Shown here one piece after another: positions 241 to 55,233 of a stretch of 64,000 bases of DNA. The notes beneath the pieces were generated by a model that was given only the letters and a program-made list of their open reading frames with translations, ran no database searches and was not told the DNA's origin. Position numbers and translations under genes: made by a program. Position 1 is the first letter of the stretch. Every line of letters begins with the position of its first letter. This DNA is from Candidatus Moraniibacteriota bacterium (GTDB taxonomy: Bacteria > Patescibacteriota > Minisyncoccia > Moranbacterales > UBA9337), in contig JALSQF010000003.1 of NCBI GenBank assembly GCA_026985555.1, positions 62,605 to 126,604 on the forward strand, written 5' to 3'.

Positions 241-1206
241 ATGCAAAAAATAACTCGTCAAAAAATATCCGTTATTATTCCCACTTATAATGTGGAGGAT
301 TTAATAGAACAAGCCATTAAATCTGTGCAATGGGCGGATGAAATTTTAGTAGTAGATTCTTTTTCTACCGATAAAACTGTTATTAAGGCTAAAAAATTAG
401 GCGCGCGAGTTTTAGCCCATGAATATGTTTATAGCGCTAAACAAAAAAACTGGGCTATTCCTCAAGCTAAATATGATTGGATATTACTTTTAGATAGTGA
501 TGAGGTAGTAACTAAAGAATTAAAAAATAATATTCAGAGATTGCTATCTAATCCACGAGAATTAAATCAATATGATGGGTTTGGTATCGCGAGAAAACAT
601 TTCTTTTTTGGAAAATTCTTGCGTTGGGGTGGTCGTTATCCTCTTTATAATATCCGTCTTTTTAGAAAATCTTGTCGTTATGAAGATCGCGATGTGCATG
701 CTCATATTCTTTTATCTAAAGAGAAAATTAAGAATATTAAAGGAGATATTCTACACTATAGTGATAGAACTTTAGAACAATTTTTTGAAAAATTTAATCG
801 CTATTCTACCTACCAAGCCAATTATATGTTGAAAGTTCATCAGCAGGGTTTAAATAAATTTCAATGGAGAGAAATATTAAATCCTTTTTATACAAAAGCT
901 TATTTGAAAGATATTTGGCAATTTTTACCTTTTACTCCTACCTTACGTTTTCTATATATGTATGTTTTACGTTTAGGATTTTTAGATGGGAAGTTTGGTT
1001 TTATGATAGCTTTATTATATGCTTTTCAAGATTATGTTTCTAAAACTAAATATATGGAATTAACAGGTAAAAAACCTAGTCTACGTTTATTAATTCAAGA
1101 AAAAATGATGCGTAGAATTAGTAAAATTAAAATTATTAAAACGGAAAAAAAAGCTTCCAAAAAATATAATCAGAATTTATCTATAGTAGATAGTGTTTAT
1201 AATTAA
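241..1206 (+). CDS. family 2 glycosyltransferase (LPS/glycan core type)
   Basis: N-terminal IIPTYN...VVDSFSTD and DSDE (DXD) motifs typical of GT2 (GT-A fold). Confidence 0.75.
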   Translation: MQKITRQKISVIIPTYNVEDLIEQAIKSVQWADEILVVDSFSTDKTVIKAKKLGARVLAHEYVYSAKQKNWAIPQAKYDWILLLDSDEVVTKELKNNIQRLLSNPRELNQYDGFGIARKHFFFGKFLRWGGRYPLYNIRLFRKSCRYEDRDVHAHILLSKEKIKNIKGDILHYSDRTLEQFFEKFNRYSTYQANYMLKVHQQGLNKFQWREILNPFYTKAYLKDIWQFLPFTPTLRFLYMYVLRLGFLDGKFGFMIALLYAFQDYVSKTKYMELTGKKPSLRLLIQEKMMRRISKIKIIKTEKKASKKYNQNLSIVDSVYN

Positions 1207-2205: not shown

Positions 2206-2820
2206 ATGAAAAAGATTATTTTTCTCTTCTTTTTTTCCTTTTTTTTCTTACCCTTCTTAGCTTCGGCTGAGCAGGTAATTTTAACCGGTCCTCAGTGGGC
2301 CGTGGACAGGGTTTGTTCAGAGGTGCACTCGGTCCTGCCGGGTGCCTCTCTGACCCAAATTGTAAGGGAGGGTAACACCTCCCTACAATTTCGTGATCAA
2401 GATGGTATCACCCGGCGGGTAATTACCATCTCTCAAGTAGCCCTCACTAGCGAGGGCAGGGCCGTCTCCGATGAGGCCCTGACCCTCGTCGCGGTCTGGC
2501 AGGGGATTCCACCTGCCTACGAATACCGGGCTGGGTGCAGCGATGTGCCTTGGTCCAGATATTCGTCCGGGAGCCAAGTTTGGGCTTCGGCTCCCATGGG
2601 GCAGAGGGTCTATGAAATTGTTAAAAAAGACAACGGTATGGCCAAGACCAAGGCCGTTGTTTGTGGGAGGTGGCAATGTAGTGCATACTTTTGCTCGCCT
2701 CACCGGGTGCCACTCAGCTCCGCGTTGGCGAACCTGCCGGCCGGAGCGATTCGGCTGGTAAGACCCAGCGATGGGTCTCACCAGCCCGTAGAGACCGAAG
2801 GTCTCTACGTGGCACCCTAA
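2206..2820 (+). CDS. secreted cysteine-containing protein with a GC-rich body and AT-rich signal peptide
   Basis: AAGGAGG RBS. Hydrophobic signal peptide ends LASA. The body uses GC-ending codons (ctg, gcc, ggc, ccg) that are atypical for this genome. Confidence 0.6.
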   Translation: MKKIIFLFFFSFFFLPFLASAEQVILTGPQWAVDRVCSEVHSVLPGASLTQIVREGNTSLQFRDQDGITRRVITISQVALTSEGRAVSDEALTLVAVWQGIPPAYEYRAGCSDVPWSRYSSGSQVWASAPMGQRVYEIVKKDNGMAKTKAVVCGRWQCSAYFCSPHRVPLSSALANLPAGAIRLVRPSDGSHQPVETEGLYVAP

Positions 2821-2970: not shown

Positions 2971-5013
2971 ATGAAAATTAAAACCAAATTTTCTAGTTCA
3001 AGTATCAGACAAGAATTTTTAGAATTTATGAATAAACGAGGGCATAAGATTGTGCCGTCGGCTTCTTTATTGCCGGAAAATGATCCCACGACACTTTTTA
3101 CCGGATCAGGAATGCAACCAATGGTGCGGTATTTATTAGGAGAAAAATATCCCGGAGGCGTAAAGCGAATAGCCAATGTTCAAAAATGTTTTCGTAGTGG
3201 AGATATTGAAGAAGTGGGAGATAATCGGCATACTACTTTTTTTGAAATGCTAGGCAATTGGTCTTTGGGTGATTATTTTAAACAAGAACAAATTGAGTGG
3301 ATTTTTGAATTTTTAACTAAAAAGTTAGAGCTAGATCCTCAGCGGCTTTATGTTTCCGTTTATCGTGGGAATGAAAAATTAGGTTTGCCAAAAGAAGAGG
3401 AGGCGGTGAAAATTTGGCAAAAACAATTTCAAAAAGTAGAAATTGAAGCGAAAAGCGTTGATTTAATAGATTTAAAACAAAAGGGCGTAGATTTAAAAGG
3501 AAAATGTTTAGTGGATTTAGATAATAGAAATAGAATTTTTTATTATTCCGATTCGGAAAATTGGTGGTCACGAGCGGGAGCGCCACATAAAATGCCGCTG
3601 GGCGAGCCAGGCGGTCCTGACTCAGAAATATTTTGGGATTTTGGTCCAGAACATAAATTTCATGAAAATTCTCCTTGGAAAGATCAACCCTGTCATCCAG
3701 CTTGTGAGTGTGGGCGTTTTATGGAAATTGGTAATAGCGTTTTTATGCAATACAAGAAAACTGAAAATGGATTTGAAGAATTGAAACAAAAAAATATTGA
3801 TTTTGGGGGTGGTTTAGAAAGAATGACAGCAGCTGTTTTAGATAATCCTGATATTTTTTTAACAGATTTGTTTCAACTACCAATGAAAAAGTTAGATGCC
3901 ATTTTATGGTCGCAGAAAAATGCTGAACAAACGCAGAAAAATACAGAAAAAGTGACTGATTATAAAGAATCTTTTTATGTAGGTGATGATGAAAATATCA
4001 AACAATCTTTTAGAGTTATTTTAGATCACATTAAGGGAGCGACTTTTTTAATTAATGATGGATCTTTACCTTCTAATAAAGATCAGGGATATTTTACACG
4101 GAGACTTATTCGGCGAGCGGTAAGATTTGGACATCAATTAGGAATAAAAGAAAACTTTACTAGTCAGATTGCCGAAGAGGTGATTAAAACTTATGAGGAT
4201 TATTACAAAGATCTAGGAGAAAATAGAGATAAAATTTTAGGAGCACTGGAAGAAGAAGAAAAAAAGTTTAGGAAGACTTTAGTTAAAGGTTTAAAGAAAA
4301 TGGAGGCGATATTTGATACAACACCACGAGTTGTTAAAAATAAAGGTGAGGCGATTAGAATTGTAACGGGATATCATGCTTTTGACTTATACCAAACCTA
4401 TGGTTTTCCAATAGAAATGTTTATTGAAGAGTTGGATAAAACAGGAATTGAATATGATATAAAAGAAATTAAAAAATCTTTTCAAGAAGAGTTGCAAAAG
4501 CACAAAGATTTATCACGAACGGCTAGCGCTGGAAAATTTAAGGGAGGTTTAGCAGATAATGATGAAGCAACAACTCAATTACATACTATTACACATTTAA
4601 TGTTAGCTGGTTTGCGTAAAGTATTAGGAGAAGAAGTTAGCCAAAAAGGTTCTAATATTACTCCTGAGAGAATTCGTTTTGATTTTTCTTATAGTCAAGC
4701 GATGACAGAGGAGCAAAGAAAAGCCGTAGAAGATTTTGTCAATAATGCTCTAAAAACTGGTGGAAAAGTAGAAATAGCTGAAATGCCTAAACAACAAGCC
4801 ATAGATGAAGGAGTAACAGGCGCTTTTTGGGAAAAATATCCAGAGCAAGTTAAGGTTTATACCATTACTTCTCCTCAAGGTGAAATTTATTCTCGGGAGC
4901 TTTGTGGTGGTCCACATGTTAAAAATCTTTCAGAAATAAAAGGTACGTTTAAAATTCTCAAAGAAAAATCTAGCGGAGCAGGAATAAGAAGAATTAAAGC
5001 TGTATTAAAATAA
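2971..5013 (+). CDS. alaS: alanyl-tRNA synthetase, short form lacking the C-terminal domain
   Basis: Class II aaRS catalytic core (FTGSGMQ..., FFEMLGNWS) and editing-domain HxxxH (HTITHLM). It is 680 aa against about 870 for the typical enzyme. Confidence 0.8.
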   Translation: MKIKTKFSSSSIRQEFLEFMNKRGHKIVPSASLLPENDPTTLFTGSGMQPMVRYLLGEKYPGGVKRIANVQKCFRSGDIEEVGDNRHTTFFEMLGNWSLGDYFKQEQIEWIFEFLTKKLELDPQRLYVSVYRGNEKLGLPKEEEAVKIWQKQFQKVEIEAKSVDLIDLKQKGVDLKGKCLVDLDNRNRIFYYSDSENWWSRAGAPHKMPLGEPGGPDSEIFWDFGPEHKFHENSPWKDQPCHPACECGRFMEIGNSVFMQYKKTENGFEELKQKNIDFGGGLERMTAAVLDNPDIFLTDLFQLPMKKLDAILWSQKNAEQTQKNTEKVTDYKESFYVGDDENIKQSFRVILDHIKGATFLINDGSLPSNKDQGYFTRRLIRRAVRFGHQLGIKENFTSQIAEEVIKTYEDYYKDLGENRDKILGALEEEEKKFRKTLVKGLKKMEAIFDTTPRVVKNKGEAIRIVTGYHAFDLYQTYGFPIEMFIEELDKTGIEYDIKEIKKSFQEELQKHKDLSRTASAGKFKGGLADNDEATTQLHTITHLMLAGLRKVLGEEVSQKGSNITPERIRFDFSYSQAMTEEQRKAVEDFVNNALKTGGKVEIAEMPKQQAIDEGVTGAFWEKYPEQVKVYTITSPQGEIYSRELCGGPHVKNLSEIKGTFKILKEKSSGAGIRRIKAVLK

Positions 5014-14285: not shown

Positions 14286-14335
14286 CTTCTGGCTATTTAA
14301 ATATCCATTTAAATGGATATTTAAATAGCCAGAAG
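14286..14335. repeat. 48-bp palindrome copy 2 (50 bp with its extended arms)
   Basis: Identical core to copy 1, in the divergent intergenic region. Confidence 0.95.
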
Positions 14336-14987: not shown

Positions 14988-16646
14988 TTAAAGATAATAT
15001 TCTTTTTTTATTTCTTGGTCTGTTTTTTCTTTTTCTGAATTTATTTTTTGGCGAGCAATTTGGCGCAGTGTTTTTAAATCTTTTTTTTGAAGTTGGCGAG
15101 CATAATTTAAAAGTTTCTCTTTTTGATTAAAGCGCGGATTTTCAAGAACCTTAGCTAAAAGTATCTCTAAAAGGGCGCCTACTATTGGACCAGGTTTTAT
15201 TTTTAATTTTTGAATAATATCATGGCCATTGATTTTAAGTTGTTTAACGGAAAGAGGATCATGAGAAAGTTTTTTTACCATATATTGAAAATGGCGCAAT
15301 TTATAAGGAACAGCTTTAGGAACACCGCTTCCTAAACGATCGCTGATCCTAACATCAATTAAATCATTAATATTTTCTAGGCCTACTTTTTGAATAACTC
15401 TTCTTACTCCGTGTTCTCCTACCTTATCAACATCGTAATAAAACATATGATTTTTTACCAACAAAACCGTTTTATCAATAATTTTACGAGGAAATTTCAA
15501 ACGTTCTAGGATTTTTTGGGTTATTCTAGCGCCTATGTATTCATGTCCATAGAAAGTAGCATAGTAGCCTTCTCCTTTTTTGGCTTGAGGTTTACCTATA
15601 TCATGAAGCCAAGCGGCTAAACGAACTTCTAATTTACGGGAGGGACATTTTTTTAAGCTAGCCAACATATGTTTATAGACGGTGTTATAGGGTCCGTAAT
15701 AATGATGGCGATTTTGTTTTATCCCAATGGTCTTATAAATTTCGGGAATAATATATTTCATTAAATTTGTTTCTACTAACAATTCTATTCCCCAAGCGGG
15801 ACGTTGAGATAAAATTATTTTTTCTAGTTCATCACGAATACGTTCCGAAGAAATATATTTTAAAAGGTGGCTATTTTTTTGAATAGCTGAAAAAGTTTCT
15901 TTTTCTATTCTCCAAAGATTTTTATTTAAAGACTGCTGGTTTTGTTTTCCTTGACCTTCTCTGTTTTTAAGAAAATCTAAACTATCTCCTTGGCTTAATT
16001 GAGAGGTAAATCTAATGGCGCGCATCATTCTTAAAGCATCTTCATTAAAGCGATCATTAGGGTTAGCAACAGTGCGAATAAGATGTTTTTTTAAATCTTT
16101 TTTTCCTTGATAAAGATCTATAATTTTAAATTGAGAAGGAGTAAAAATTTTTAAAGCCATAGCGTTAATGGTAAAATCTCTCCGACTTAAATCTTCCTTT
16201 AATGTTTGAGCAAAGCGAATTTTATCAGGACGGCGATAGTCAGAATAAGTTGATTCAATACGATAGGTAGTAATTTCAATATTTCCAGTTTGATCCCAAT
16301 CATTAGATTTGTTTGATTCCCCTCTTTTTCTTTTTGTATTTGAATTACCTTTTTGCTTTTTTTTCTGGAAAGTTTTTTCTTTTTTTGAGGGAATATATTT
16401 AACTGGCAATATTACTGTTCCAAAATTATTTTCATATTTTGCTTCTGGAAAAACTTTTAAAATATCTTTTGGTTTAGCGTTGGTGGTAATATCCCAATCT
16501 TGCGGTTCTTTATTTAAAAGTAAATCTCTTACGCATCCTCCCACCAAAAAAGCTTCCCAGCCAGCTTGTTCTAACTGAGACAGAGTAAATAATATTTTAG
16601 GTGGTATCTTATTAAGCATAATTTTATAGTAGCAAAGGCTTGACAA
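14988..16646 (-). CDS. cca: CCA-adding tRNA nucleotidyltransferase
   Basis: GGCVRDLLL polymerase-beta head motif and HDIGKP HD domain. A Lys-rich insertion is present. The alternative start is MLNK at 16619. Confidence 0.8.
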   Translation of the reverse strand: MSSLCYYKIMLNKIPPKILFTLSQLEQAGWEAFLVGGCVRDLLLNKEPQDWDITTNAKPKDILKVFPEAKYENNFGTVILPVKYIPSKKEKTFQKKKQKGNSNTKRKRGESNKSNDWDQTGNIEITTYRIESTYSDYRRPDKIRFAQTLKEDLSRRDFTINAMALKIFTPSQFKIIDLYQGKKDLKKHLIRTVANPNDRFNEDALRMMRAIRFTSQLSQGDSLDFLKNREGQGKQNQQSLNKNLWRIEKETFSAIQKNSHLLKYISSERIRDELEKIILSQRPAWGIELLVETNLMKYIIPEIYKTIGIKQNRHHYYGPYNTVYKHMLASLKKCPSRKLEVRLAAWLHDIGKPQAKKGEGYYATFYGHEYIGARITQKILERLKFPRKIIDKTVLLVKNHMFYYDVDKVGEHGVRRVIQKVGLENINDLIDVRISDRLGSGVPKAVPYKLRHFQYMVKKLSHDPLSVKQLKINGHDIIQKLKIKPGPIVGALLEILLAKVLENPRFNQKEKLLNYARQLQKKDLKTLRQIARQKINSEKEKTDQEIKKEYYL

Positions 16647-16668
16647 AAAGTAAATTGTAAAGTAGTAT
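16640..16668 (+). promoter_or_regulatory. sigma70-like promoter TTGACA-N17-TAGTAT
   Basis: Consensus -35, 17-nt spacer, TAGTAT; about 130 nt upstream of the secreted-protein gene. Confidence 0.45.
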
Positions 16669-16801
16669 TTTAAATCACGTTATACATAGAAGGACTTTAA
16701 AAATAAAAGAAAAAGAAAAGGAGGTGAAGAAGTGAAGTTTTAAAATTTAAAAAAATTTTTTTATTTTGAAATTTGAAAAAAACAAAAAAAGGAGGATTAT
16801 T

Positions 16802-17758
16802 ATGAAAAGATCGTTTATTTTATTTTCGTTTATTTTGATGTTGCCGGCTATAGTTTTAGCTGGTCAGGCCAATTCCTCTTCTTCTGCTACTGCCAATGTG
16901 GGAGTGATGGCGGGAGGAGGATCGGCCAGTAGTTTCGCCGAAGGAGGAACGGCGGTAACAAACACCAATGTTTCTCCTAACATTTCGCCTAATATTAATG
17001 TGGACGTGGGAGTTAATCCCAATATCTCTCCGTCCATAAATCCTAGTCAGACTGTTTCGCCACAGACAAGATCTTCTGTGGCCATAGATAGTCATGACAA
17101 AATTGAGAACATTAACCGGCAACTGCCGGGGTCTCCTTTACTGGGAGGACCTAATGCCATGGAATATTTTGGTCCATGGCAGTTGCCGAAAACCCCCTGG
17201 AACGTATTTAGTCCTTATTTGGGCAGGTATGAAGTGCAAAATCCTGCCATTAGGATTGAATACGAAAAACTCTGGAAACATTTTTATCGGAATTACGAGA
17301 ATGTTTCCAGTGTAACCCAAGTCCCCTGGGGATCTGTATCTACTCAGGGGATGGTATTGGTGGGAGAAATGGCAGTCGTTCTTCATAAGGAACAGACCAG
17401 TGAAGATGGACTGCAAATTGCCCGTTATTTAGCTTCTGAGAATGGAGCTGACCTAGTGGAGTTTACACTGGGTTGGAATCAGCAGTCGGAAGCAGGAGGC
17501 TGGCACGTGGGCACCGGAGCTGGTGCCACCGGTGTTGTTGGTCCCCAGGAAAAAGTCGGAGTGTCTGGTGCCGGAGGGACCGGCGTAGGACATTCCTGGG
17601 TAAAAATAGAAACCTGTCCTTTCGTGAAAGCCAGATTCTGGCGCACTAAAGGGCAGGAGATAAAGATAAAAAAGATTACGTTAGAGACTAATAAGTCTCT
17701 TAGGCGTAATCATGTTCAAGAAAAATTTAAGACAATAAGAAAGGAGGGTAAGCAATGA
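16802..17758 (+). CDS. secreted Gly/Ser/Asn/Pro-rich protein with a GC-rich body
   Basis: AAGGAGG RBS. Signal peptide MKRSFILFSFILMLPAIVLAGQA. NISPNI repeats and Gly-rich tracts. GC is much higher than the flanks. Confidence 0.6.
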   Translation: MKRSFILFSFILMLPAIVLAGQANSSSSATANVGVMAGGGSASSFAEGGTAVTNTNVSPNISPNINVDVGVNPNISPSINPSQTVSPQTRSSVAIDSHDKIENINRQLPGSPLLGGPNAMEYFGPWQLPKTPWNVFSPYLGRYEVQNPAIRIEYEKLWKHFYRNYENVSSVTQVPWGSVSTQGMVLVGEMAVVLHKEQTSEDGLQIARYLASENGADLVEFTLGWNQQSEAGGWHVGTGAGATGVVGPQEKVGVSGAGGTGVGHSWVKIETCPFVKARFWRTKGQEIKIKKITLETNKSLRRNHVQEKFKTIRKEGKQ

Positions 17759-17883
17759 AAAAAATAAAAATTTTTATTTTGTGTTTAACGGCAACTCTTT
17801 TTCTCTCAGCCTGTGCTGGGGGAAAATACATTAATATTCAGCCCACTGCCCCTGTGGCAGGAACTGAAATTCCAGTGAAATAA
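17755..17883 (+). CDS. 42-aa lipoprotein
   Basis: AAGGAGGG RBS. ATGA start/stop overlap with the upstream gene. Lipobox LSAC. Confidence 0.5.
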   Translation: MKKIKIFILCLTATLFLSACAGGKYINIQPTAPVAGTEIPVK

Positions 17884-17889
17884 AAAAAT

Positions 17890-17998
17890 AAAGAGGAAAG
17901 AAAATCCATTTAGGATTTACTTTCCTCTTTTTTATTTCACTAAAAAATAAAAATAAAAAAGGAGGCCTATGTAAATACATAGTGCCTCCTGACCTGCT
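17890..17998. terminator. two hairpins between convergent genes (bidirectional terminator region)
   Basis: agaggaaag...ctttcctct followed by T-run; ggaggcctatgta...tacatagtgcctcc. Confidence 0.5.
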
Positions 17999-18000
17999 AA

Positions 18001-18546
18001 TTAATATGACACATTGACGCTAACCCCGCTGTTAAAATAAGAGTTAGCATTTCCGATGCTTTCAGCCCCGCCACCCGTTTGGGTGGTTATACTTACTCCG
18101 GGGGCAAAAACACCGGTGTAATTGTAGCCCTCTGTAAACCCAGCGGCGCGATGCTGGGTTTCTACGTATCCATTGGAACCGGCGTCCAGATAAATATTGA
18201 CGCCGTTGGTTCCAACGGTCCCTTTGAAACCATAAAAATTACTCTCTTCCGCAAAAACTGCGGAGCGAGAGTTACCCGTTCTGGCTCCGACTGTGGAGCC
18301 ATTCTGGTTTACCTCAACTCCTACTGGGAGATAATTTTCTCCCAGGATTACGCCTTGCTCGGCGTAATTATTTTGGGAAATAGAATTGATTACCGTAGGC
18401 ATGGGTCCGCCTACGGCCTCAATTCCGTTGTATGAGGAGGCACCGTTAAAAACGGTGACCCCCGTGGGCTGGGCCGCCAGGGCAAAACTGGCAAAACAGA
18501 AAATAGAAATTGAAAAAATTAAAGATAGAAAAAATTCCTTTTTCAT
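18001..18546 (-). CDS. secreted Gly/Asn/Tyr/Ser/Thr-rich protein with a GC-rich body
   Basis: AGGAGG RBS. Signal peptide ends ALAAQP. Composition is atypical for the genome. Confidence 0.6.
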   Translation of the reverse strand: MKKEFFLSLIFSISIFCFASFALAAQPTGVTVFNGASSYNGIEAVGGPMPTVINSISQNNYAEQGVILGENYLPVGVEVNQNGSTVGARTGNSRSAVFAEESNFYGFKGTVGTNGVNIYLDAGSNGYVETQHRAAGFTEGYNYTGVFAPGVSITTQTGGGAESIGNANSYFNSGVSVNVSY

Positions 18547-18784
18547 AGTATCCTCCTTTTCTTTTTTTGATTAACCTTAGCAAAAACAAATTGTTGTTTT
18601 TTTAAACCTCCTTTCTTGTTATTTTTTGCCTCGGTTAATCGTAATCGTTGTTAAATAACCTTTCAAAAGAATGTTAAGGAAAAAACTAATTTTTGTCAAG
18701 AGTTTAATCTTTTGAATAAATATTTTAGAAAAAGCATAATTTATTCTATAATTAAGATAGGTTATTAGAAATAAATTATTTTCT

Positions 18785-19741
18785 ATGTTGAAAAAAATAA
18801 TTTTTTTTATACTCATTCTAGGCGGTCTTTTTTTCTCGGATAATTTTTTTACTTTTCAAAAAAAAATAATTCCAATTGATAATTTTAAATCTCCTCTTTT
18901 TTTAACTAAAAAGCAAAAGTGTTTTCTTCCGTTGCATTATTCTTTAGGAAAATTAGATAATCGTTTTAATCTTACTTCAGAAGAAGCTCGGCAAGCTCTA
19001 TTGCAAGCGGAAAGTATTTGGGAGAAAGCAATTCGTATGAATTTACTGCAATATGATGAAAAAGCTAATTTTAAAATTAATTTTATTTTTGATCAGAGAC
19101 AAGAGCGAACTTTGGCTTATAAAAAACTATATGAACAATTAGATCAAGTTCAAAAAACCAAAGGAAAGATGAGTAAAGAATATCAAGAATTAATTAAGCG
19201 TTATCAGATTAAATTAGATGTTTATCAAAAGAGAGTTAAAAATTTTAATACTGATTTAAGCCAATACAATCAGAAAGTAGCTTATTGGAACAAAGAGGGT
19301 GGAGCGCCATCAGATGAATATAAAAAATTGCAAAAAGAAAAAAAAGAATTAGATAAACGAAGAAATAAAATAGAAACCAAAAGAAAGGAACTGAATAAAC
19401 TAATACAAAAAATAAATTTATTAGCCCAAAAAGAAAAGAAACTAGTGGAAAATTATAATAGCAATGTGAGAAAATACGAAAATAATTATGGTCAAAAATG
19501 TCACTTTGATCAAGGAAAATATTTTGGCGATCATATAGAAATTTATCAGTTTAATAATTATTCAGATTTGATTTTGGTTTTAGCGCACGAATTAGGACAT
19601 GCTTTGCAAATGAAACATGTAATAAATAGCCATTCTATAATGTATTATTTAGCAGGAGATCAAGATTTTAAAAACTTACAACCAACTAAAGAAGATATTG
19701 AAGAATTAAAAAAAGTGCTGAAAGAAAATCATTGTCTTTAA
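18785..19741 (+). CDS. membrane-anchored metzincin-like zinc metalloprotease with a coiled-coil region
   Basis: HELGHALQMKH (HExxHxxxxxH) followed by the SIMYY Met-turn. N-terminal transmembrane helix. Confidence 0.55.
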   Translation: MLKKIIFFILILGGLFFSDNFFTFQKKIIPIDNFKSPLFLTKKQKCFLPLHYSLGKLDNRFNLTSEEARQALLQAESIWEKAIRMNLLQYDEKANFKINFIFDQRQERTLAYKKLYEQLDQVQKTKGKMSKEYQELIKRYQIKLDVYQKRVKNFNTDLSQYNQKVAYWNKEGGAPSDEYKKLQKEKKELDKRRNKIETKRKELNKLIQKINLLAQKEKKLVENYNSNVRKYENNYGQKCHFDQGKYFGDHIEIYQFNNYSDLILVLAHELGHALQMKHVINSHSIMYYLAGDQDFKNLQPTKEDIEELKKVLKENHCL

Positions 19742-27950: not shown

Positions 27951-28175
27951 TTTTTTGTAGGTTAATCTTATTATATATCTATTATAGCATAATTATCTAT
28001 TTTTAACAAATTTTTGGACTAGTGTTGCGACATTTTTAATAAATTTTTTAAATTTATCTTTTGAGATTTTTAAGAATATAGATTTTAGAAGTTTTTTTAA
28101 AATAGAATATGTTTAGTTTTAATCAAAAATTATATTAAAAAAGTTGAATCAACTGATAAAATTTTTAAAAAATGC

Positions 28176-28223
28176 TTCTGGCTATTTAAATATCCATTTA
28201 AATGGATATTTAAATAGCCAGAA
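28176..28223. repeat. 48-bp palindrome copy 3
   Basis: Identical core. Confidence 0.95.
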
Positions 28224-36660: not shown

Positions 36661-39600
36661 TTAAAAACTAGTTACTCGCCTTACTTCTTCAAAAGTAGTT
36701 TTTCCTTGAATAATTTTTATAATTCCATCTTCATACATAGTTATCATACCATTTTGTACGGCTTTTTGTTTTATATCAGTAGCTAAAGCTCTTTGAGCAA
36801 TAAGATGGCGAATACTATCATCTACAACCAAAACTTCACTGATAGGCGCGCGTCCTTTGTAGCCGAGATGATTACATTTTTCACATCCGTTAGGTTCGTA
36901 AATATATTCTGGAAGAGTAATTTCTAAATCTTTTATTTTAGAAGAAACAGACTTAATAATTTTTTTAAATTCTTCTTTTTCTTCTGGTTTGATTTTTCTT
37001 CGTTTTTTACAGCTACATAATTTTCTTACAAGGCGTTGAGACATAAAAGCATTAGCAGAGTTGGCTAAATTATCAGCATCTACACCTAAACCTATTAGGC
37101 GGGGTGCTACTCCAGAGGCGTCGTTAGTACGCAAAGTTGATAAGAGTAAATGACCACTTATAGAAGCTTGCACTGTGATTTTAGCGGTTTCATCATCACG
37201 AATTTCTCCAACCATTAGAATATCGGGATTTTGCCTAAGAAGAGAACGTAGCGCTGTAGCAAAAGTATAATTCTTTTCTTTATTTACTTGAGTCTGTAAT
37301 ATTCCCTTCAGTTGATATTCAATGGGATCTTCTACTGTGATGATTTTTAATTCTGGCTGACTAAGTCCACTTAGAATGCTGTAAAGAGTAGTAGTTTTTC
37401 CTGAACCAGTGGGTCCAGCGTTAAGGAATAGGCCATTAGGTTTGCTTGTTTCTTGAATAATCCTCTTTAAATTATAAGGGAGAATTTCTAATTGTTCTAT
37501 ATCTTTAGCAATAGCCGAATGGTTTGAAAATTTCATTATAACTGTTTCACCATATCCTCCTGCTATAAATGATATTCTAATGTTTACTTTAGTTTCTTGA
37601 ATAATAGAATTATTTTCTATATAGAGAGTAAAACGGCTATCTTTTAAGCCAACTTGTTTTTCCGATTTGAGTCCGCTTAATAATTTTAATTTACCTAGTA
37701 AGAAAGGGTATTCATCAAGTGGAATTCTAGCCATATTTTGAATAACTCCATCAATACGATAACGTATAACTACATCTTTTTCTTCAGGCTCAATATGAAT
37801 ATCTTCTGCTTCCCAAAGAAGAGCGCCAGTTAAAATGTATTCAGTTAATTTTTTAAAAGGAGTTTTTTTAATTAAAGATTGAAACTTTTGAGGAGAATGA
37901 GAGTATTCTTTAATTTTGTCAATATTTTTTTTCTCTATGTTTATTCCTCTAGATAAGGATTGTTCCATTAATTTATTATAGAGATTTTTTAAGAATTTAG
38001 TTTCACCGGCTACTCTTTGGACTTCTTCTAATGAAGTGATTCCTTCTATGGCTTTGATAATTCCATCTTGAGCCATAGTAACCATACCCTCTTCAATAGC
38101 TGTTTGAGTAATAGTATCTTCACTTTCCATTTTTAAAATAAGTTGTTTAATATTTTCACTAACTGGCAACACTTCAAAAATACCTATACGTCCTTTATAA
38201 CCAGTGTAGTTGCAATGAGAACAACCCCGAGAACGATAAAGAAAATCTATGTTTTTAGGTATGGTAATATTTGAGCGAGGAGAAATAACAGAAAGTAGTT
38301 CTTTTAATAAATTAGCAACTTTGTCAGCAGGTTTGTATTTTTCTTTGCAATAAGGACATAGTTTACGAACAAGTCGTTGTGCCATAAAAATATTGGCTGA
38401 AGCAGCGATTAAATTAGGACGCGCTCCTAATTCTATAAAACGAGGAATAGTTCCTGCCGCATTATTAGTATGAAGAGTAGATAATACTAAATGTCCAGTT
38501 AAAGCAGCATTAATAGCAATATCAGCAGTTTCATCATCTCTAATTTCTCCTACAAGAATAATGTCAGGATCTTGTCTGACAATGGCTCGTAATCCTTCTG
38601 CAAAAGAATAATGGCGATCTGGAGCTACCTGGGTTTGAGAAATATTTTCAATTTGATACTCAATTGGATTTTCTATGGTAACAATTTTTACTCCGGGTTT
38701 ATTAAGCAAATTAATAAAAGAATAAAGAGTAGTAGTTTTTCCTGAACCAGTGGGTCCAGTAGTGAGAATCATTCCATTTGGTCTAGCAATTTCTTTTTTT
38801 ACTAATTCATAAGCTTTTCCTCTTAATCCTAACTTTTCTATAGTTAATAAAACCTTTCTTTGATCTAATAAACGCATTACAATAGTTTCTCCATAATTTC
38901 CAGGAAGAACACTAGATCTTATATCTATTCTTTCTTTATTTACTTTTATAGTGAAATGTCCATCTTGAGCAATATCATGAAGATTTATTTTCATTTTACT
39001 CATCATTTTTAAACGAAAGATTATCTGATGGTGAATTTTTTTTGGAAAAAAACCTATATCTTGTAAAACTCCATCAAGTCTATAACGTAAACGTATTTGA
39101 TCATCCTGTGGTTCTAGATGGATATCGCTAGCTCCCATTTTTAAAGCTCCAGCTATAATAGTGTTAATGATTTCTGTTGTGGGTAATTCTAATATCCTTT
39201 CTTTTAAATTGATAAGATTCTTAAATTTTTCTTCAAATTTATCTAAATCTTTTGTAGTTAGGTTGGCCTGAGTAAGATCTAAAAAAGTTAAGTATTTTTT
39301 TTCATTATATTTTTTCCAAGCTTTTTCTAAAGAAGAAAAAGAAACTATATAAGGAGATATTTGCCAACCTTTTTCTTTTTTAAGATAATCAAGATATTTT
39401 TTAAAACCAGGAAGAGCAGGATTAAATATAGCTAAACGAATACGTTTATTAGTTTTTTGAAAAGAAGCTATTTTAAATTTTCGGGCATCTTTTTCTGGAA
39501 TAATTTGAACTGTTTCAGGATCAATGGCAAAAAGGGAAAGATCTATATAAGGTAAGTGATTTTCTTTAGCTAAACGGAAGGCTAATTCTTCTTCAGAAAG

Positions 39601-39690
39601 ATGTTGTAATTTTTTAAAGGTTCTTTTTAAACGTTCTTCTTTTCTTTTTTTCCAGGGAGATAGAAATTTTTTCTTTATTATTTTGACCAT
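36661..39690 (-). CDS. tandem-fused double PilB/GspE-type type IV pilus / type II secretion ATPase
   Basis: Two complete N2 + ATPase + zinc-finger units. Walker A GPTGSGKTTTLYS occurs twice. The (D/E)IH(L/I)EP...RYR(L/I)DG block occurs twice. Cys4 clusters occur twice. Confidence 0.8.
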   Translation of the reverse strand: MVKIIKKKFLSPWKKRKEERLKRTFKKLQHLSEEELAFRLAKENHLPYIDLSLFAIDPETVQIIPEKDARKFKIASFQKTNKRIRLAIFNPALPGFKKYLDYLKKEKGWQISPYIVSFSSLEKAWKKYNEKKYLTFLDLTQANLTTKDLDKFEEKFKNLINLKERILELPTTEIINTIIAGALKMGASDIHLEPQDDQIRLRYRLDGVLQDIGFFPKKIHHQIIFRLKMMSKMKINLHDIAQDGHFTIKVNKERIDIRSSVLPGNYGETIVMRLLDQRKVLLTIEKLGLRGKAYELVKKEIARPNGMILTTGPTGSGKTTTLYSFINLLNKPGVKIVTIENPIEYQIENISQTQVAPDRHYSFAEGLRAIVRQDPDIILVGEIRDDETADIAINAALTGHLVLSTLHTNNAAGTIPRFIELGARPNLIAASANIFMAQRLVRKLCPYCKEKYKPADKVANLLKELLSVISPRSNITIPKNIDFLYRSRGCSHCNYTGYKGRIGIFEVLPVSENIKQLILKMESEDTITQTAIEEGMVTMAQDGIIKAIEGITSLEEVQRVAGETKFLKNLYNKLMEQSLSRGINIEKKNIDKIKEYSHSPQKFQSLIKKTPFKKLTEYILTGALLWEAEDIHIEPEEKDVVIRYRIDGVIQNMARIPLDEYPFLLGKLKLLSGLKSEKQVGLKDSRFTLYIENNSIIQETKVNIRISFIAGGYGETVIMKFSNHSAIAKDIEQLEILPYNLKRIIQETSKPNGLFLNAGPTGSGKTTTLYSILSGLSQPELKIITVEDPIEYQLKGILQTQVNKEKNYTFATALRSLLRQNPDILMVGEIRDDETAKITVQASISGHLLLSTLRTNDASGVAPRLIGLGVDADNLANSANAFMSQRLVRKLCSCKKRRKIKPEEKEEFKKIIKSVSSKIKDLEITLPEYIYEPNGCEKCNHLGYKGRAPISEVLVVDDSIRHLIAQRALATDIKQKAVQNGMITMYEDGIIKIIQGKTTFEEVRRVTSF

Positions 39691-41166: not shown

Positions 41167-41216
41167 CTTCTGGCTATTTAAATATCCATTTAAATGGATA
41201 TTTAAATAGCCAGAAG
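41167..41216. repeat. 48-bp palindrome copy 4
   Basis: Identical core, in the divergent intergenic region. Confidence 0.95.
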
Positions 41217-41351
41217 AGACTCAAATTAAATTTTTATCCATTTTATGTTTTAAATTTTTTTAATAAAATACATTATGTTAAAAGTATATTGTCAGAAGAG
41301 GGAGAATATTTTATAATACTTATAAGATTATTATTTAATGTATTTTAATTT

Positions 41352-49394: not shown

Positions 49395-49446
49395 GCTTCT
49401 GGCTATTTAAATATCCATTTAAATGGATATTTAAATAGCCAGAAGC
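49395..49446. repeat. 48-bp palindrome copy 5 (52 bp with its extended arms)
   Basis: Identical core; lies between clpP and the 23S leader. Confidence 0.95.
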
Positions 49447-49547: not shown

Positions 49548-49986
49548 GATGAGGCTTGCAAAAATAATTATTTTTTTAATTTAACTAATTGAAAAAACAA
49601 TCTATATCAAAAAATAATAAGCAAAAATATAAACGGTATTTCAATCTAATTTCATTTAAATCTATTTAATAGAAATAAAAAATGAAATAGAAATTAGTTG
49701 AATTCCGTTATGGCGGAGTTTTTTATTTGAAAATTAATTAAAAAGTTTGTGAAGAAATTGATATTTTAGATTATTAAAATATAAACTGAACTTAAAATCT
49801 AAAGTATTAATTTCCGCATAAATGAGTAAATTAAAAACAAAATAGAAAAGATGGTTTTATAGAAAGGAAATTATTTTTAAGCGGAAAAATAGTTTCTGAA
49901 ATAAAACCAAAATAAAGTAGGTAAGTAATTTTATTGAGTCAAAAATTAGTTAAGTTATTTTTAACTACTAATTTTGAAAGTAAAAA

Positions 49987-53056
<3,070 letters not shown>

Positions 53057-53181
53057 TTACTTTCATTTCATTGTAGCAATTACGCTAGCGTTTGTTACAA
53101 TGATTAGTAGTTAAAAGTAACTTAATGTAGTTATTTTAAATAATTTTGCAGATACCAACTGAAACTAGATGATATTATTTT

Positions 53182-53294
53182 GGTGGTTTTAGCGAGAGGG
53201 GTACACCTGTTCCCATACCGAACACAGTAGTTAAGCCTCTTAGCGCCGATGATATTGAGACTTAAAAGTCTTGAGAAAGTAGGTCGCCGCCAAA
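53182..53294 (+). rRNA. rrf: 5S ribosomal RNA
   Basis: CCTGTTCCCATACCGAACACAG...GCGCCGATG...GTAGG are conserved. Confidence 0.85.
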
Positions 53295-53317
53295 ATAATG
53301 TCATCTAGTTTTTTTAT

Positions 53318-53413: not shown

Positions 53414-53500
53414 GGAGAGGTGCCTGAGTGGTTGAAAGGGGCACCCTGCTAAGGTGTTGTACCTTCACAGGTACCGAGGGTTCGAATCCCTCCCTCTCCG
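53414..53500 (+). tRNA. tRNA-Ser (anticodon GCT), class II with long variable arm
   Basis: Acceptor GGAGAGG/CCTCTCC, anticodon loop CTGCTAA, long variable arm, T-loop TTCGAAT. Confidence 0.9.
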
Positions 53501-53593
53501 CAAATTTGCAATTTTTGCATTTTTGGCTGAATTTGGAGCGGAGCAAAGCTCCTCTGAGGCCGCGCTTTGCGCGAAAAGGGCTGAATTTACAAG

Positions 53594-55233
53594 GATTTGC
53601 CACGCTCCGCGTGGTCAAAAAGAAATGTTTTGGTTTTGAATTTGGAAGTTCGAACCAATCTTTTTTAGAAAATCTCGAATCCCTTCGGGATTTTCTTTGG
53701 AAGCGATAATTTTGGCTTGTTTACTGTCTTTTATAAATTTCTCGGCGAGTTCGAACCGATTATCGCTTTTTTGCTCAAAAGACTTCAATTTGTCTTTCAA
53801 AACTTGTTTTTGATTGATGAGTTTGTTTTTCGCTTTCTGATATTCTTTGATGTTCAAAACACTTTCCAGATAAGCGTTCATCAGCTTTTTCAGTTTCTCG
53901 TCAATTTTTGCGATTTCTTGTTTTATCTTTTGAGCAAAAAAGTTTGATGATTGCGCCTTTACTTTTCTTTCTTTTTCAATCTCTTTCAACATCCAATCGG
54001 CGCAATCATCAGACAAAGAAACTTTTTGTATTGCTTCGTTGATTTGAGATGAAATTTTTTCTTCTCTCGTAAATACATTTTGCGTGCATTTATGGTTTGG
54101 GTTTTTCCTTGTGCAATAGTAGTAAATATATTCCTTACCGCTTTTCTTGATTTTCTTGTCCGCCGTGATTGAATATCCGCACTCTCCGCACTTGAAAATT
54201 CCCCGATAAAGAAAAAATTTCATCTTGTCCGCTTTTTACGGTTTGGACTTTCTTTTCATCACTTCTTGCACTTGGTCAAAAAGTTTCTTTGTGATAATCG
54301 GTTCGTGCTTTCCTTCGTAAAATTCGCCATTGTAGCGGATTAGTCCGTAATAGAAAGGATTTTGCAATAAATACTGATAATTGGAAACGGAAAGCATTTT
54401 TCCTCGCCGCCCGCGCAAGCCAAGCTCGTTGATAATCTTTCGGAGTTCTCTCAATGTGTATTTGCCTGTCGCGTAGGCCTCAAATGCCTTTTTTATGAGA
54501 GGGGCTTTTTCTTTATCCAAATAAATCATTTTTGTTTTCTTGTCGTTCAAATATCCCAAAGGGGCCATTTGAGGCCATAAACCTTGCTTTAACTTTTGGC
54601 GGTGTCCTCTTTTGATATTCTCCGAAAGATTATCAACATAATATTTTGACTGCCCAAAAGCGATGGAAAGCATAAATTTTCCTTGAGGAGTTGGGTCAAA
54701 CCAGAAAGTCGGGAATTTTAGCTCTTTGATAACGCCAATATCAACAAGATAAATAATTTGCCCGCCGTCAACGCTGTTTCTTGCCAGTCTGTCGGGGTGC
54801 CACGCTAAAATTCCCGTTGCTTCGCCCGCTTCCATTCGCTTTAACATATCGGCAAACATCGGTCGCCCGGGCTTTTTGGCGGTTTGTTTTTCTACGATAA
54901 TATCAACAATTTCCAAATTTTCTTTTTTCGCCAACTCTTTCAATTCCGCTATTTGGTCGGCAATGTTTCGCACTTGCCGATCTTCCGAATCGGTAGACTT
55001 GCGGGCGTAAATGAAAAACTTTCTGGTTTGATTTTTTGCTTTATTGTCTTTATTGTCTTTGCTCATATTTTTGGCAGTCAAAATATTAAAAAATTATTGC
55101 TTCCAAGTTTCGTCAAAGGCGAAACGAAAAAAGATTGGTTGGCAAAACTTCGTTTGCTTTGGGTTTTACCCAAACGAACTTCCAACTCCAACACCAAAAC
55201 ATTTCTTTTTGCCCGCGCGGAGCGTGGCAAATC
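53594..55233. mobile_element. serine-recombinase element bounded by imperfect inverted repeats (IR-L 53594-53666; IR-R 55127-55233)
   Basis: The reverse complement of 55127-55233 aligns with 53594-53666 at about 85% identity, apart from a 34-bp hairpin insertion at 55141-55174. The shared core is gatttgccacgctccgcg. Confidence 0.6.
53615..55081 (-). pseudogene. large serine recombinase interrupted by one in-frame TAA (fragments 54236-55081 and 53615-54223)
   Basis: The N-terminal fragment has the YARKST catalytic serine motif and resolvase domain. The C-terminal fragment has the zinc ribbon CGECG...YYYC and a coiled coil. Both fragments are in the same frame, separated by TAA plus four codons. 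Confidence 0.7.

Follow-up and report, generated by a model that had tools for sequence, protein, structure and literature searches.

What do three adjoining genes for small exported proteins, much richer in GC than their surroundings, do for a bacterium of the Candidate Phyla Radiation (CPR)? We addressed this question in a 64-kb piece of an ~28% GC chromosome (contig JALSQF010000003.1; the whole stretch is called the window below), in which gene A is followed by the very small gene L and faced by the convergent gene B. The comparisons reported here firmly establish A, L and B as a genuine module of three genes for exported proteins, conserved but orphan. It combines a new family of proteins with a micro-lipoprotein that annotation has missed, and it shows both a persistent excess of GC at third codon positions (GC3) and a cassette-type polymorphism. 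The function of the module is unproven, and a lipid-anchored, oligomerising surface assembly is our best guess.

The host could be placed from the window itself. Its DnaB protein has 77% identity to DnaB of a Candidatus Moranbacteria metagenome-assembled genome (MAG), with the next matches all from Patescibacteria, and the gene content (ComEC, a double-length PilB, FtsK, RecA and an unlinked 23S–5S pair) fits a CPR bacterium.

An orphan module conserved across loci

An exhaustive hidden Markov model (HMM) search of 1.84 billion cluster representatives defined the A family as 33 proteins; a word-indexed search gave four relatives of A and one of B, and a profile of B gave five. The NCBI label of A-family members is ‘hypothetical protein [Candidatus Moranbacteria bacterium]’. 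A scan of genome contigs for A returned no match and a metagenome scan returned one locus only. Neither A, L nor B matches an entry in Pfam, NCBIfam, PHROGs, PADLOC or the PDB sequences, and tblastn found none of them in 50,697 phage records, 72,556 plasmid records or IMG/VR. Profile searches of the PDB sequences with the whole A family, with the A core only or with B gave nothing below an E-value of 0.02. Among 32 A-family members none reached a Pfam, NCBIfam or PDB sequence match, and two had sub-threshold matches to DUF4156 (E 0.007). A phage, plasmid or defence origin of the module was set aside on the empty searches of the phage, plasmid and IMG/VR records, PHROGs and PADLOC.

Gene contexts were compared at twelve loci. 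In every locus with enough flank, A adjoins a secreted, nearly uncharged, G/S/T/N/A/Y/V-rich protein of 135–184 aa (window/L001/L098, L002, L003, L005, L006, L087, L091, L093 and L099, our locus handles); for L090 and L094 the flank is too short to judge. The gene for this B-like protein may be convergent with A, co-directional or upstream of it, and L follows A in 10 of the 12 loci. The genes around the module differ by lineage, being a CCA-adding enzyme with an M10 peptidase, an AAA_18 kinase, the dnaK operon or RseP, so that the module itself is the conserved unit. Pairwise ratios of non-synonymous to synonymous divergence (dN/dS) were 0.06–0.17 for A, 0.20–0.38 for L and 0.12–0.18 for B, which indicates purifying selection on all three genes and shows that all three encode proteins. 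A reading of the DNA made before any search (the sequence-only reading) had proposed a cell-surface or adhesin-like module. Its exported, envelope or surface part is borne out by the Sec and lipoprotein signals, the recurrent arrangement and the purifying selection, but ‘adhesin’ is still a guess.

Gene layout and expression signals

The features of the module are collected in Table 1. The same earlier reading had the coordinates of all three open reading frames (ORFs) exactly right, and the signal peptides, strong ribosome-binding sites, LSAC lipobox and ATGA overlap that it described can all be read from the sequence. The terminator that it placed after the lipoprotein gene likewise held up (z −5.9): none of 200 shuffles folds as well, and the element was also found as an inverted repeat in the repeat search. 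For the B terminator, too, no shuffle folds equally well. The ATGA at 17755–17758 joins the stop codon of A to the start codon of L, an overlap through which L is predicted to be translationally coupled to A. The AGGAGG sites of A, L and B each lie 6–8 nt upstream of the gene start, and the 5′ untranslated region (UTR) of A runs for ~125 nt after the promoter. The module is apparently highly expressed.

Table 1. Positions of the genes, expression signals and protein segments of the module; a slash separates signal from mature part.
Feature	Position	Strand	Description	Basis
Gene A	16802–17758	+	318 aa, exported (predicted)	ORF listing and raw sequence
Gene L	17755–17883	+	42-aa lipoprotein precursor, MKKIKIFILCLTATLFLSA/CAGGKYINIQPTAPVAGTEIPVK	ORF listing and raw sequence
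Gene B	18001–18546	−	181 aa, exported (predicted), convergent with A-L	ORF listing and raw sequence
A-L operon promoter	16640..16668	+	sigma-70-like, TTGACA-17 nt-TAGTAT	10/12 matches
B promoter	18671..18699	−	sigma-70-like, TTGACA-17 nt-TAACAT	10/12 matches
A-L intrinsic terminator	17890..17930	+	hairpin, then T-run	dG −21.2 kcal/mol, z −5.86
B intrinsic terminator	17960..17990	−	hairpin, then U-run	dG −20.8 kcal/mol, z −4.25
AGGAGG site of A	16790–16795	+		
AGGAGG site of L	17742–17747	+		
AGGAGG site of B	18552–18557	−		
A signal peptide	aa 1–20		...AIVLA/GQA	read from sequence
A stalk	aa 21–95		disordered, S/N/A/G/V-rich	
A conserved segment	aa 96–135		NRQ...FGPW...PWN	
A core	aa 136–224 and 272–282		YbjQ/BhsA/RcsF/FvfA-like alpha/beta	
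A inserted hairpin	aa 225–271 = 17474..17614	+	glycine-rich beta-hairpin, WNQQSEAGGWHVGTGAGATGVVGPQEKVGVSGAGGTGVGHSWVKIET	
A tail	aa 283–318		K/E-rich	

The 15-mer AAAAAGAAAAGGAGG occurs in the 5′ UTR of A (16710–16724), with a GTG-AAG-TTT-TAA mini-ORF next downstream, and again, reverse-complemented, at 18552–18566 as the ribosome-binding region of B; the A-L and B transcription units thus have a common leader motif. Rfam matches to the UTRs and the terminator region were at chance level only. Divergent from B lies a gene for an M10 zinc metallopeptidase (18785–19741, + strand; HELGHALQMKH), which adjoins the module in this lineage only. The protein has a hydrophobic segment at its N terminus, and its long middle part is rich in K and E and resembles a coiled coil.

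The predicted structure of protein A

Protein A was modelled with AlphaFold (AF2) from a 32-sequence alignment; an earlier AF2 model from five sequences, with a predicted local distance difference test score (pLDDT) of 35, was not used. The core is modelled at a pLDDT above 90 and aa 17–100 as disordered. In the fold comparison the confident core resembles YbjQ, BhsA, RcsF and FvfA, with no Foldseek match significant. These relatives by fold, namely YbjQ/UPF0145 (DUF74), BhsA/YdgH/YahO/SrfN (DUF1471), RcsF and Francisella FvfA, are small periplasmic or lipoprotein alpha/beta domains that the A core resembles in the model. They differ in that none of the 32 A-family members reaches the HMMs of YbjQ, DUF1471, RcsF or FvfA, and in that A is three times larger: the ~75-aa disordered stalk, the NRQ/FGPW/PWN segment, a 45-aa Gly-rich hairpin insertion and the basic tail are found in A only. 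The literature on FvfA and on pore-formers of CPR bacteria yielded nothing useful.

The inserted hairpin, of ~45 residues, is the most conserved stretch in the family, with the consensus GWxxGFGGGAxGxxGxxEKxxxSGxGGTxxGKS. Its strands (218–246 and 252–281) protrude from the core, and the protruding middle has a pLDDT of ~67–72. Glycine occupies 72–94% of the sequences at positions 237, 239, 244, 247, 256 and 259, the turn carries a conserved E-K pair (E250 in 24/31 sequences, K251 in 19/32), and W/H residues lie close to the base. Along the strands the pattern runs hydrophobic-G-hydrophobic-G ... VV-G-x-x-E-K-hydrophobic-A-hydrophobic-S, with only G, A and S in the middle and weak hydrophobicity overall. 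The string ‘GGTGxGKS’ in this hairpin might be read as a Walker-A motif; this was rejected, as its Lys is His in the window protein and variable across the family, and the segment is predicted as a beta-strand of a secreted protein.

Foldseek returned nothing significant for the model (best E 0.048, TM-score 0.12–0.14), and only the hairpin was aligned. The top of this non-significant list is mostly occupied by pore-state lysenin, aerolysin, epsilon-toxin, anthrax PA, CDTb and leukocidins, with the TraT and FlgH rings at lower ranks. We take these pore and ring matches of the modelled hairpin as a lead, not proof. Proteins that build barrels from hairpins (alpha-hemolysin, aerolysin, lysenin, CsgG, the TraT decamer, SpoIIIAG and the FlgH rings) combine a globular domain with one long, Gly-rich protruding hairpin, as the A model does. 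They differ from it in that the matches (E ≥ 0.05) cover the hairpin alone, the globular domains are unrelated, an oligomer of A is hypothetical and the host presumably lacks an outer membrane.

These matches bear on a rival explanation, that A is a pore-forming toxin or bacteriocin. Secreted A would oligomerise and insert its hairpin into the membrane of a host or competitor, L would protect the producer or aid release in the manner of colicin lysis and immunity genes, and B would be an accessory. The Gly-rich hairpin with its charged tip and W/H belts, together with the pore-state beta-barrel toxins that head the Foldseek matches, speaks for this reading, as does a life on host cells, which the literature (e.g. 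PMC12102498) describes for CPR bacteria. On the other side, those E-values are non-significant, toxin stems are rarely conserved in sequence as the hairpin glycines are, and the hairpin has a weak lipid-facing pattern. The alpha-hemolysin stem is Gly-rich like the hairpin of A, which is weakly hydrophobic and unusually conserved in sequence, and A has no Pfam or PDB sequence match to the body of a beta-barrel pore-forming toxin (aerolysin, haemolysin/leukocidin or lysenin). Moreover, the module occurs in a single copy, has housekeeping genes around it and, within each type, shows strong conservation (dN/dS 0.06). We consider a toxin unlikely.

A micro-lipoprotein encoded behind A

L has the sequence features of a bacterial lipoprotein, namely a basic n-region (MKKIK), a hydrophobic h-region (IFILCLTATLF) and the lipobox LSA/C, which follows the pattern [LVI][ASTVI][GAS]C, and its predicted mature lipopeptide is Pro-rich and only ~23 aa long. 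A counterpart with a lipobox follows A in L001, L002, L003, L005, L006, L087, L090 and L093, and L094 has a truncated ORF. These counterparts are 42–64 aa long, and the A-C of the lipobox is invariant in nine homologues or positional counterparts. Homologues of L keep the frame, the lipobox and a Y...P-x-[AV]-P motif; in the sister strain the frame is intact across five synonymous and four non-synonymous codon changes. The L gene is uncalled in public annotation of the window, of L001 (10954–11082) and of L098 (about 3954–4082).

Against family models, L gave sub-threshold matches to lipoprotein signal models and none above the cut-off: LptM_cons was matched in two of nine sequences (E 0.016, sub-threshold), and NF047847 at E 0.014 over the signal region only, again sub-threshold. 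Lysis_col and entericidin are absent from the Pfam matches of L. No candidate for Lgt or LspA came up among the scanned ORFs of the window. Colicin lysis proteins and entericidins are of the size of L, which is a further point for the toxin reading, but L matches no lysis or immunity family. Colicin lysis proteins, entericidins and LptM are likewise very small lipoproteins, to be compared with the 42–64-aa precursors here; L has no family match among them.

Protein B, a nearly uncharged exported protein

The signal peptide of B (...FALA/AQP) can be read from the sequence. It precedes a mature part of ~157 aa that contains 17% G, 11% N, 11% V, 10% S, 8% T, 8% A and 6% Y, but only 9% charged residues. 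Self-alignment of B gave no off-diagonal signal and thus no internal repeats. The ‘NISPNI repeats’ of the sequence-only reading were overstated, since they amount to 2.2 copies of a 12-nt unit, and no array of internal repeats exists in A or in B. The five homologous clusters from the profile search are the only ones known for B, and all adjoin an A gene. No Pfam or PDB match was found for B, and B with eight B-like proteins had no Pfam match even at E ≤ 10. The C-terminal ...VNVSY might suggest an outer-membrane beta-barrel, a reading that we set aside, as B comes from a CPR bacterium and its homologues do not share a conserved C-terminus.

The composition of B invites comparison with curli. 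In such a system B would be the subunit of a functional amyloid or fibre, A its channel, nucleator or anchor, and L the tether of A to the membrane. B and the B-like proteins are uncharged and G/S/T/N/A/Y/V-rich like curlin or Fap subunits, the stalk of A is compositionally the same as B, and the strong promoters, ribosome-binding sites and terminators suit an abundant structural product. The CsgG/CsgF/CsgA system has a layout of three exported parts, which the module resembles. As in curli, a small, secreted, uncharged G/N/S/T/Y-rich protein lies beside an exported putative ring-former and a lipoprotein component. Curlin homology of B was nevertheless rejected: no Curlin_rpt or other Pfam match and no internal repeats were found, and hhalign against a CsgA sequence gave a probability of 0.1%. 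Unlike the curli system, moreover, the module has no curlin repeats or CsgA similarity in B, A is not CsgG-like, and the lipid anchor is on a separate ~23-aa peptide; no CsgG-type lipoprotein channel was found alongside the module. A curli-like fibre is, in our judgement, quite unlikely.

Joint replacement of the A core and L between strains

Within the family, two loci of one MAG (L002 and L005; GCA_027028205.1) can be compared with loci of sister MAGs (L003 and L006), and the four together represent two allelic types at one locus. Apart from an assembly gap in L005, the flanking AAA_18 protein is the same in L002 (1990–2935) and L005 (1017–2010). Nucleotide identity is 83% over the promoter and the first ~95 codons of A, and 85% over the terminators, B and the downstream flank. 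Between these blocks, the A core and L are unalignable as DNA and have 29% amino-acid identity, and the two L types differ in sequence and length (44 and 64 aa). The breakpoints lie at the stalk/core junction of A and at the end of L, so the A core and L are swapped together as one block between strains. In the one population concerned, the types of L002 and L005 represent two alleles or else two copies. Another recombinant, P0003, combines a type-2 leader with a type-1 core. A is very similar among members of the same type (97% of amino acids). Synonymous divergence of B is about twice that of the flanking genes (0.64–0.77 vs 0.31–0.41).

A similar concentration of change separates the window from L001, a 99%-identical sister strain. 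L differs at 7% of positions, the 5′ end of B at 7.5% and the B promoter at 16%, and several neighbouring genes do not differ at all; the percentages for the 5′ end and promoter of B are alignment positions that differ, indels included, over the stretch most divergent from L001. Together with the two-type replacement, this local pile-up marks the locus as a hot-spot of diversification by recombination, not by the mutagenesis of a diversity-generating retroelement (DGR).

Targeting of A and B by a DGR had been raised as a distant idea in the sequence-only reading. The secreted proteins of unusual composition fit it, and the reverse transcriptase (RT) and template could sit beyond the 64 kb searched. 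Within the window, however, no ORF of at least 150 aa contains an RVT domain (Pfam scan or precomputed Pfam matches). A blastn search for a template/variable repeat pair of ~100–150 nt (word size 7, 16640–18546 against the whole window) gave only the terminator palindrome and A/T-rich low-complexity matches; in agreement, the repeat search of the window found no copy of the A or B coding bodies elsewhere. Strains differ very little at the 3′ ends of A and B, with a single difference from L001 in the last 110 codons of B. The substitutions are not adenine-specific, but mixed transitions and transversions located in L, at the end of the B signal peptide and in the B promoter. No C-type-lectin or Ig-like variable-domain family was detected. 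The idea is dropped, with no RT or repeat pair in the window and no adenine bias in the substitutions, and we regard it as extremely improbable.

The cassette structure bears on the toxin reading as well. A variable C-terminal domain and a small downstream gene, exchanged as a block behind a conserved 5′ part, is the layout of polymorphic toxin–immunity cassettes, and A-L shares it. The variable parts of the two A-L types nonetheless remain homologous and keep the same fold, which is not an exchange of different toxins.

A GC3 excess that travels with the module

The GC-rich bodies of A and B noted in the sequence-only reading were confirmed: GC in 200-nt windows is 0.43–0.57 inside A and B, against 0.19–0.33 in the flanks. 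For A, B and L the GC3 values are 0.41, 0.47 and 0.28, respectively, compared with 0.11–0.23 in ~35 other genes of the window. Codons ending in G or C are raised for nearly all amino acids (CAG 0.59 vs 0.13, GCC 0.57 vs 0.13, AAG 0.38 vs 0.13), and amino-acid composition accounts for part of the GC rise only. In eight other loci, with one exception, the module has a GC3 offset of about +0.10 to +0.30 over its neighbours, on host backgrounds of 0.13–0.5. GC3 of A tracks the host, being 0.34–0.41 at 27–28% GC, 0.47–0.60 at ~41% GC and 0.67 on a contig of 45% GC. No such offset is seen in the ribosomal-protein and chaperone genes of those loci. Recurring across loci and missing from these genes, the offset is a property of the module, and neither a single recent transfer nor the ordinary adaptation of codons to high expression explains it.

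A recently acquired foreign island, GC-rich simply through a GC-richer donor and without a special role in the host, would account for the GC3 contrast in the window (0.41–0.47 vs 0.11–0.23) and for its extension to all codon families; two further GC3-rich genes of the window (ORF 2206–2820 and a split serine recombinase) also look foreign. The recurrence of the excess in eight loci and its scaling with host background argue against such an island. Divergence is roughly in step with that of housekeeping genes (RuvB 71% identical, A about 50%), no mobility gene adjoins the module, no phage, plasmid or viral match was found, and the genes are under purifying selection. We hold this explanation to be very improbable. 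On the question of whether these are ordinary genes, with homologues of native composition and no hypervariability, the answer is divided: homologues exist, but they are very rare, their GC3 is non-native and the locus varies strongly by cassette replacement.

ORF 2206–2820 (+ strand, 204 aa) encodes an orphan secreted protein with a signal peptide, and at GC 0.55 and GC3 0.60 it is a stronger anomaly than the module. It has no Pfam, PHROG or PADLOC match, and at least four public contigs carry an identical copy of the protein in the same setting.

Other features of the window

The split large serine recombinase (53615–55081, − strand) comprises a Resolvase + Recombinase ORF of 281 aa and a Zn_ribbon_recom ORF of 202 aa, has a GC3 of 0.38–0.45 and lies directly after the 23S–5S genes and tRNA-Ser (53414–53501). 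It is probably a remnant of an integrated element. The 23S and 5S rRNA genes span 49981–53295, with ClpP immediately upstream; no 16S gene is present in the window, so the rRNA operon is unlinked. The 23S match extends over 3081 nt for a 2925-position model, which suggests that the gene carries an insertion. The PilB/T2SSE-type ATPase of double length (36661–39690, − strand, 1009 aa) has two matched T2SSE stretches. A perfect 49-nt palindrome, CTTCTGGCTATTTAAATATCCATTTAAATGGATATTTAAATAGCCAGAAG, is present in four identical intergenic copies (14286–14335, 28175–28223, 41167–41217 and 49396–49445) and may be a repetitive extragenic palindromic (REP)- or miniature inverted-repeat transposable element (MITE)-like element, a shared terminator or a protein-binding site.

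A proposed envelope assembly

The reading that we put forward, tentatively and at a little short of an even chance, is that A, L and B are three cooperating orphan exported proteins of an abundant, self-contained envelope assembly in a Moranbacteria-like CPR bacterium, in which A oligomerises and L is its lipid-anchored partner. Sec would export all three proteins. CPR cells are regarded as having a single membrane and no outer membrane; lipidated L would reside in the outer leaflet of the single cell membrane, where it would bind the A core and anchor or cap A. In oligomers of A the hairpins could align to give a ring or pore that resembles a beta-barrel, on the model of CsgG, TraT, SpoIIIAG or pore-state toxins. 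The uncharged S/N/A/G stalk of A, with the compositionally similar B, would form the exposed and possibly polymerising surface part. Surface exposure to phages or host cells may drive the allele replacement between strains and, more speculatively, the raised GC3 may stem from frequent recombination.

Several points weigh against this assembly. The joint replacement of the A core and L could merely reflect their adjacency. L is missing in L091 and L099, and the B-like proteins of distant loci match B in size and composition and are not demonstrably homologous to it. No Foldseek match of A is significant, the hairpin is modelled with only moderate confidence (pLDDT ~70), and its hydrophobic/polar alternation is weak, with G, A and S in the middle. 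Oligomerisation of A is a prediction only, and the single CPR membrane is taken from the literature.

A bolder version, which we think decidedly doubtful, would make A the founder of a new class of proteins that form beta-barrel pores or rings together with a lipoprotein partner, with a YbjQ-like body and a glycine-zipper hairpin. CPR episymbionts would use these at host contact, as a conduit in the host envelope or as an attachment structure. L would then be a type-specific anchor or safeguard, and the switching of the A core with L and the raised GC3 (possibly through GC-biased gene conversion) would be traces of an arms race.

CPR bacteria, or Patescibacteria, account for much of the diversity of bacteria. 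They live attached to other cells, yet a function is known for hardly any of their surface proteins. The module described here is small, conserved across Moranbacteria-like genomes and ‘hypothetical’ in all public records. It offers a new family with a testable structural prediction, a ring or pore formed from a conserved glycine-rich hairpin, and a natural two-allele cassette system that points to interacting parts, one of them an unannotated micro-lipoprotein partner. It also presents a reproducible local GC3 anomaly that is not readily explained by composition or by one GC-rich donor. If A does prove to be a pore or anchor at the interface of symbiont and host, how CPR cells tap their hosts would become directly testable.

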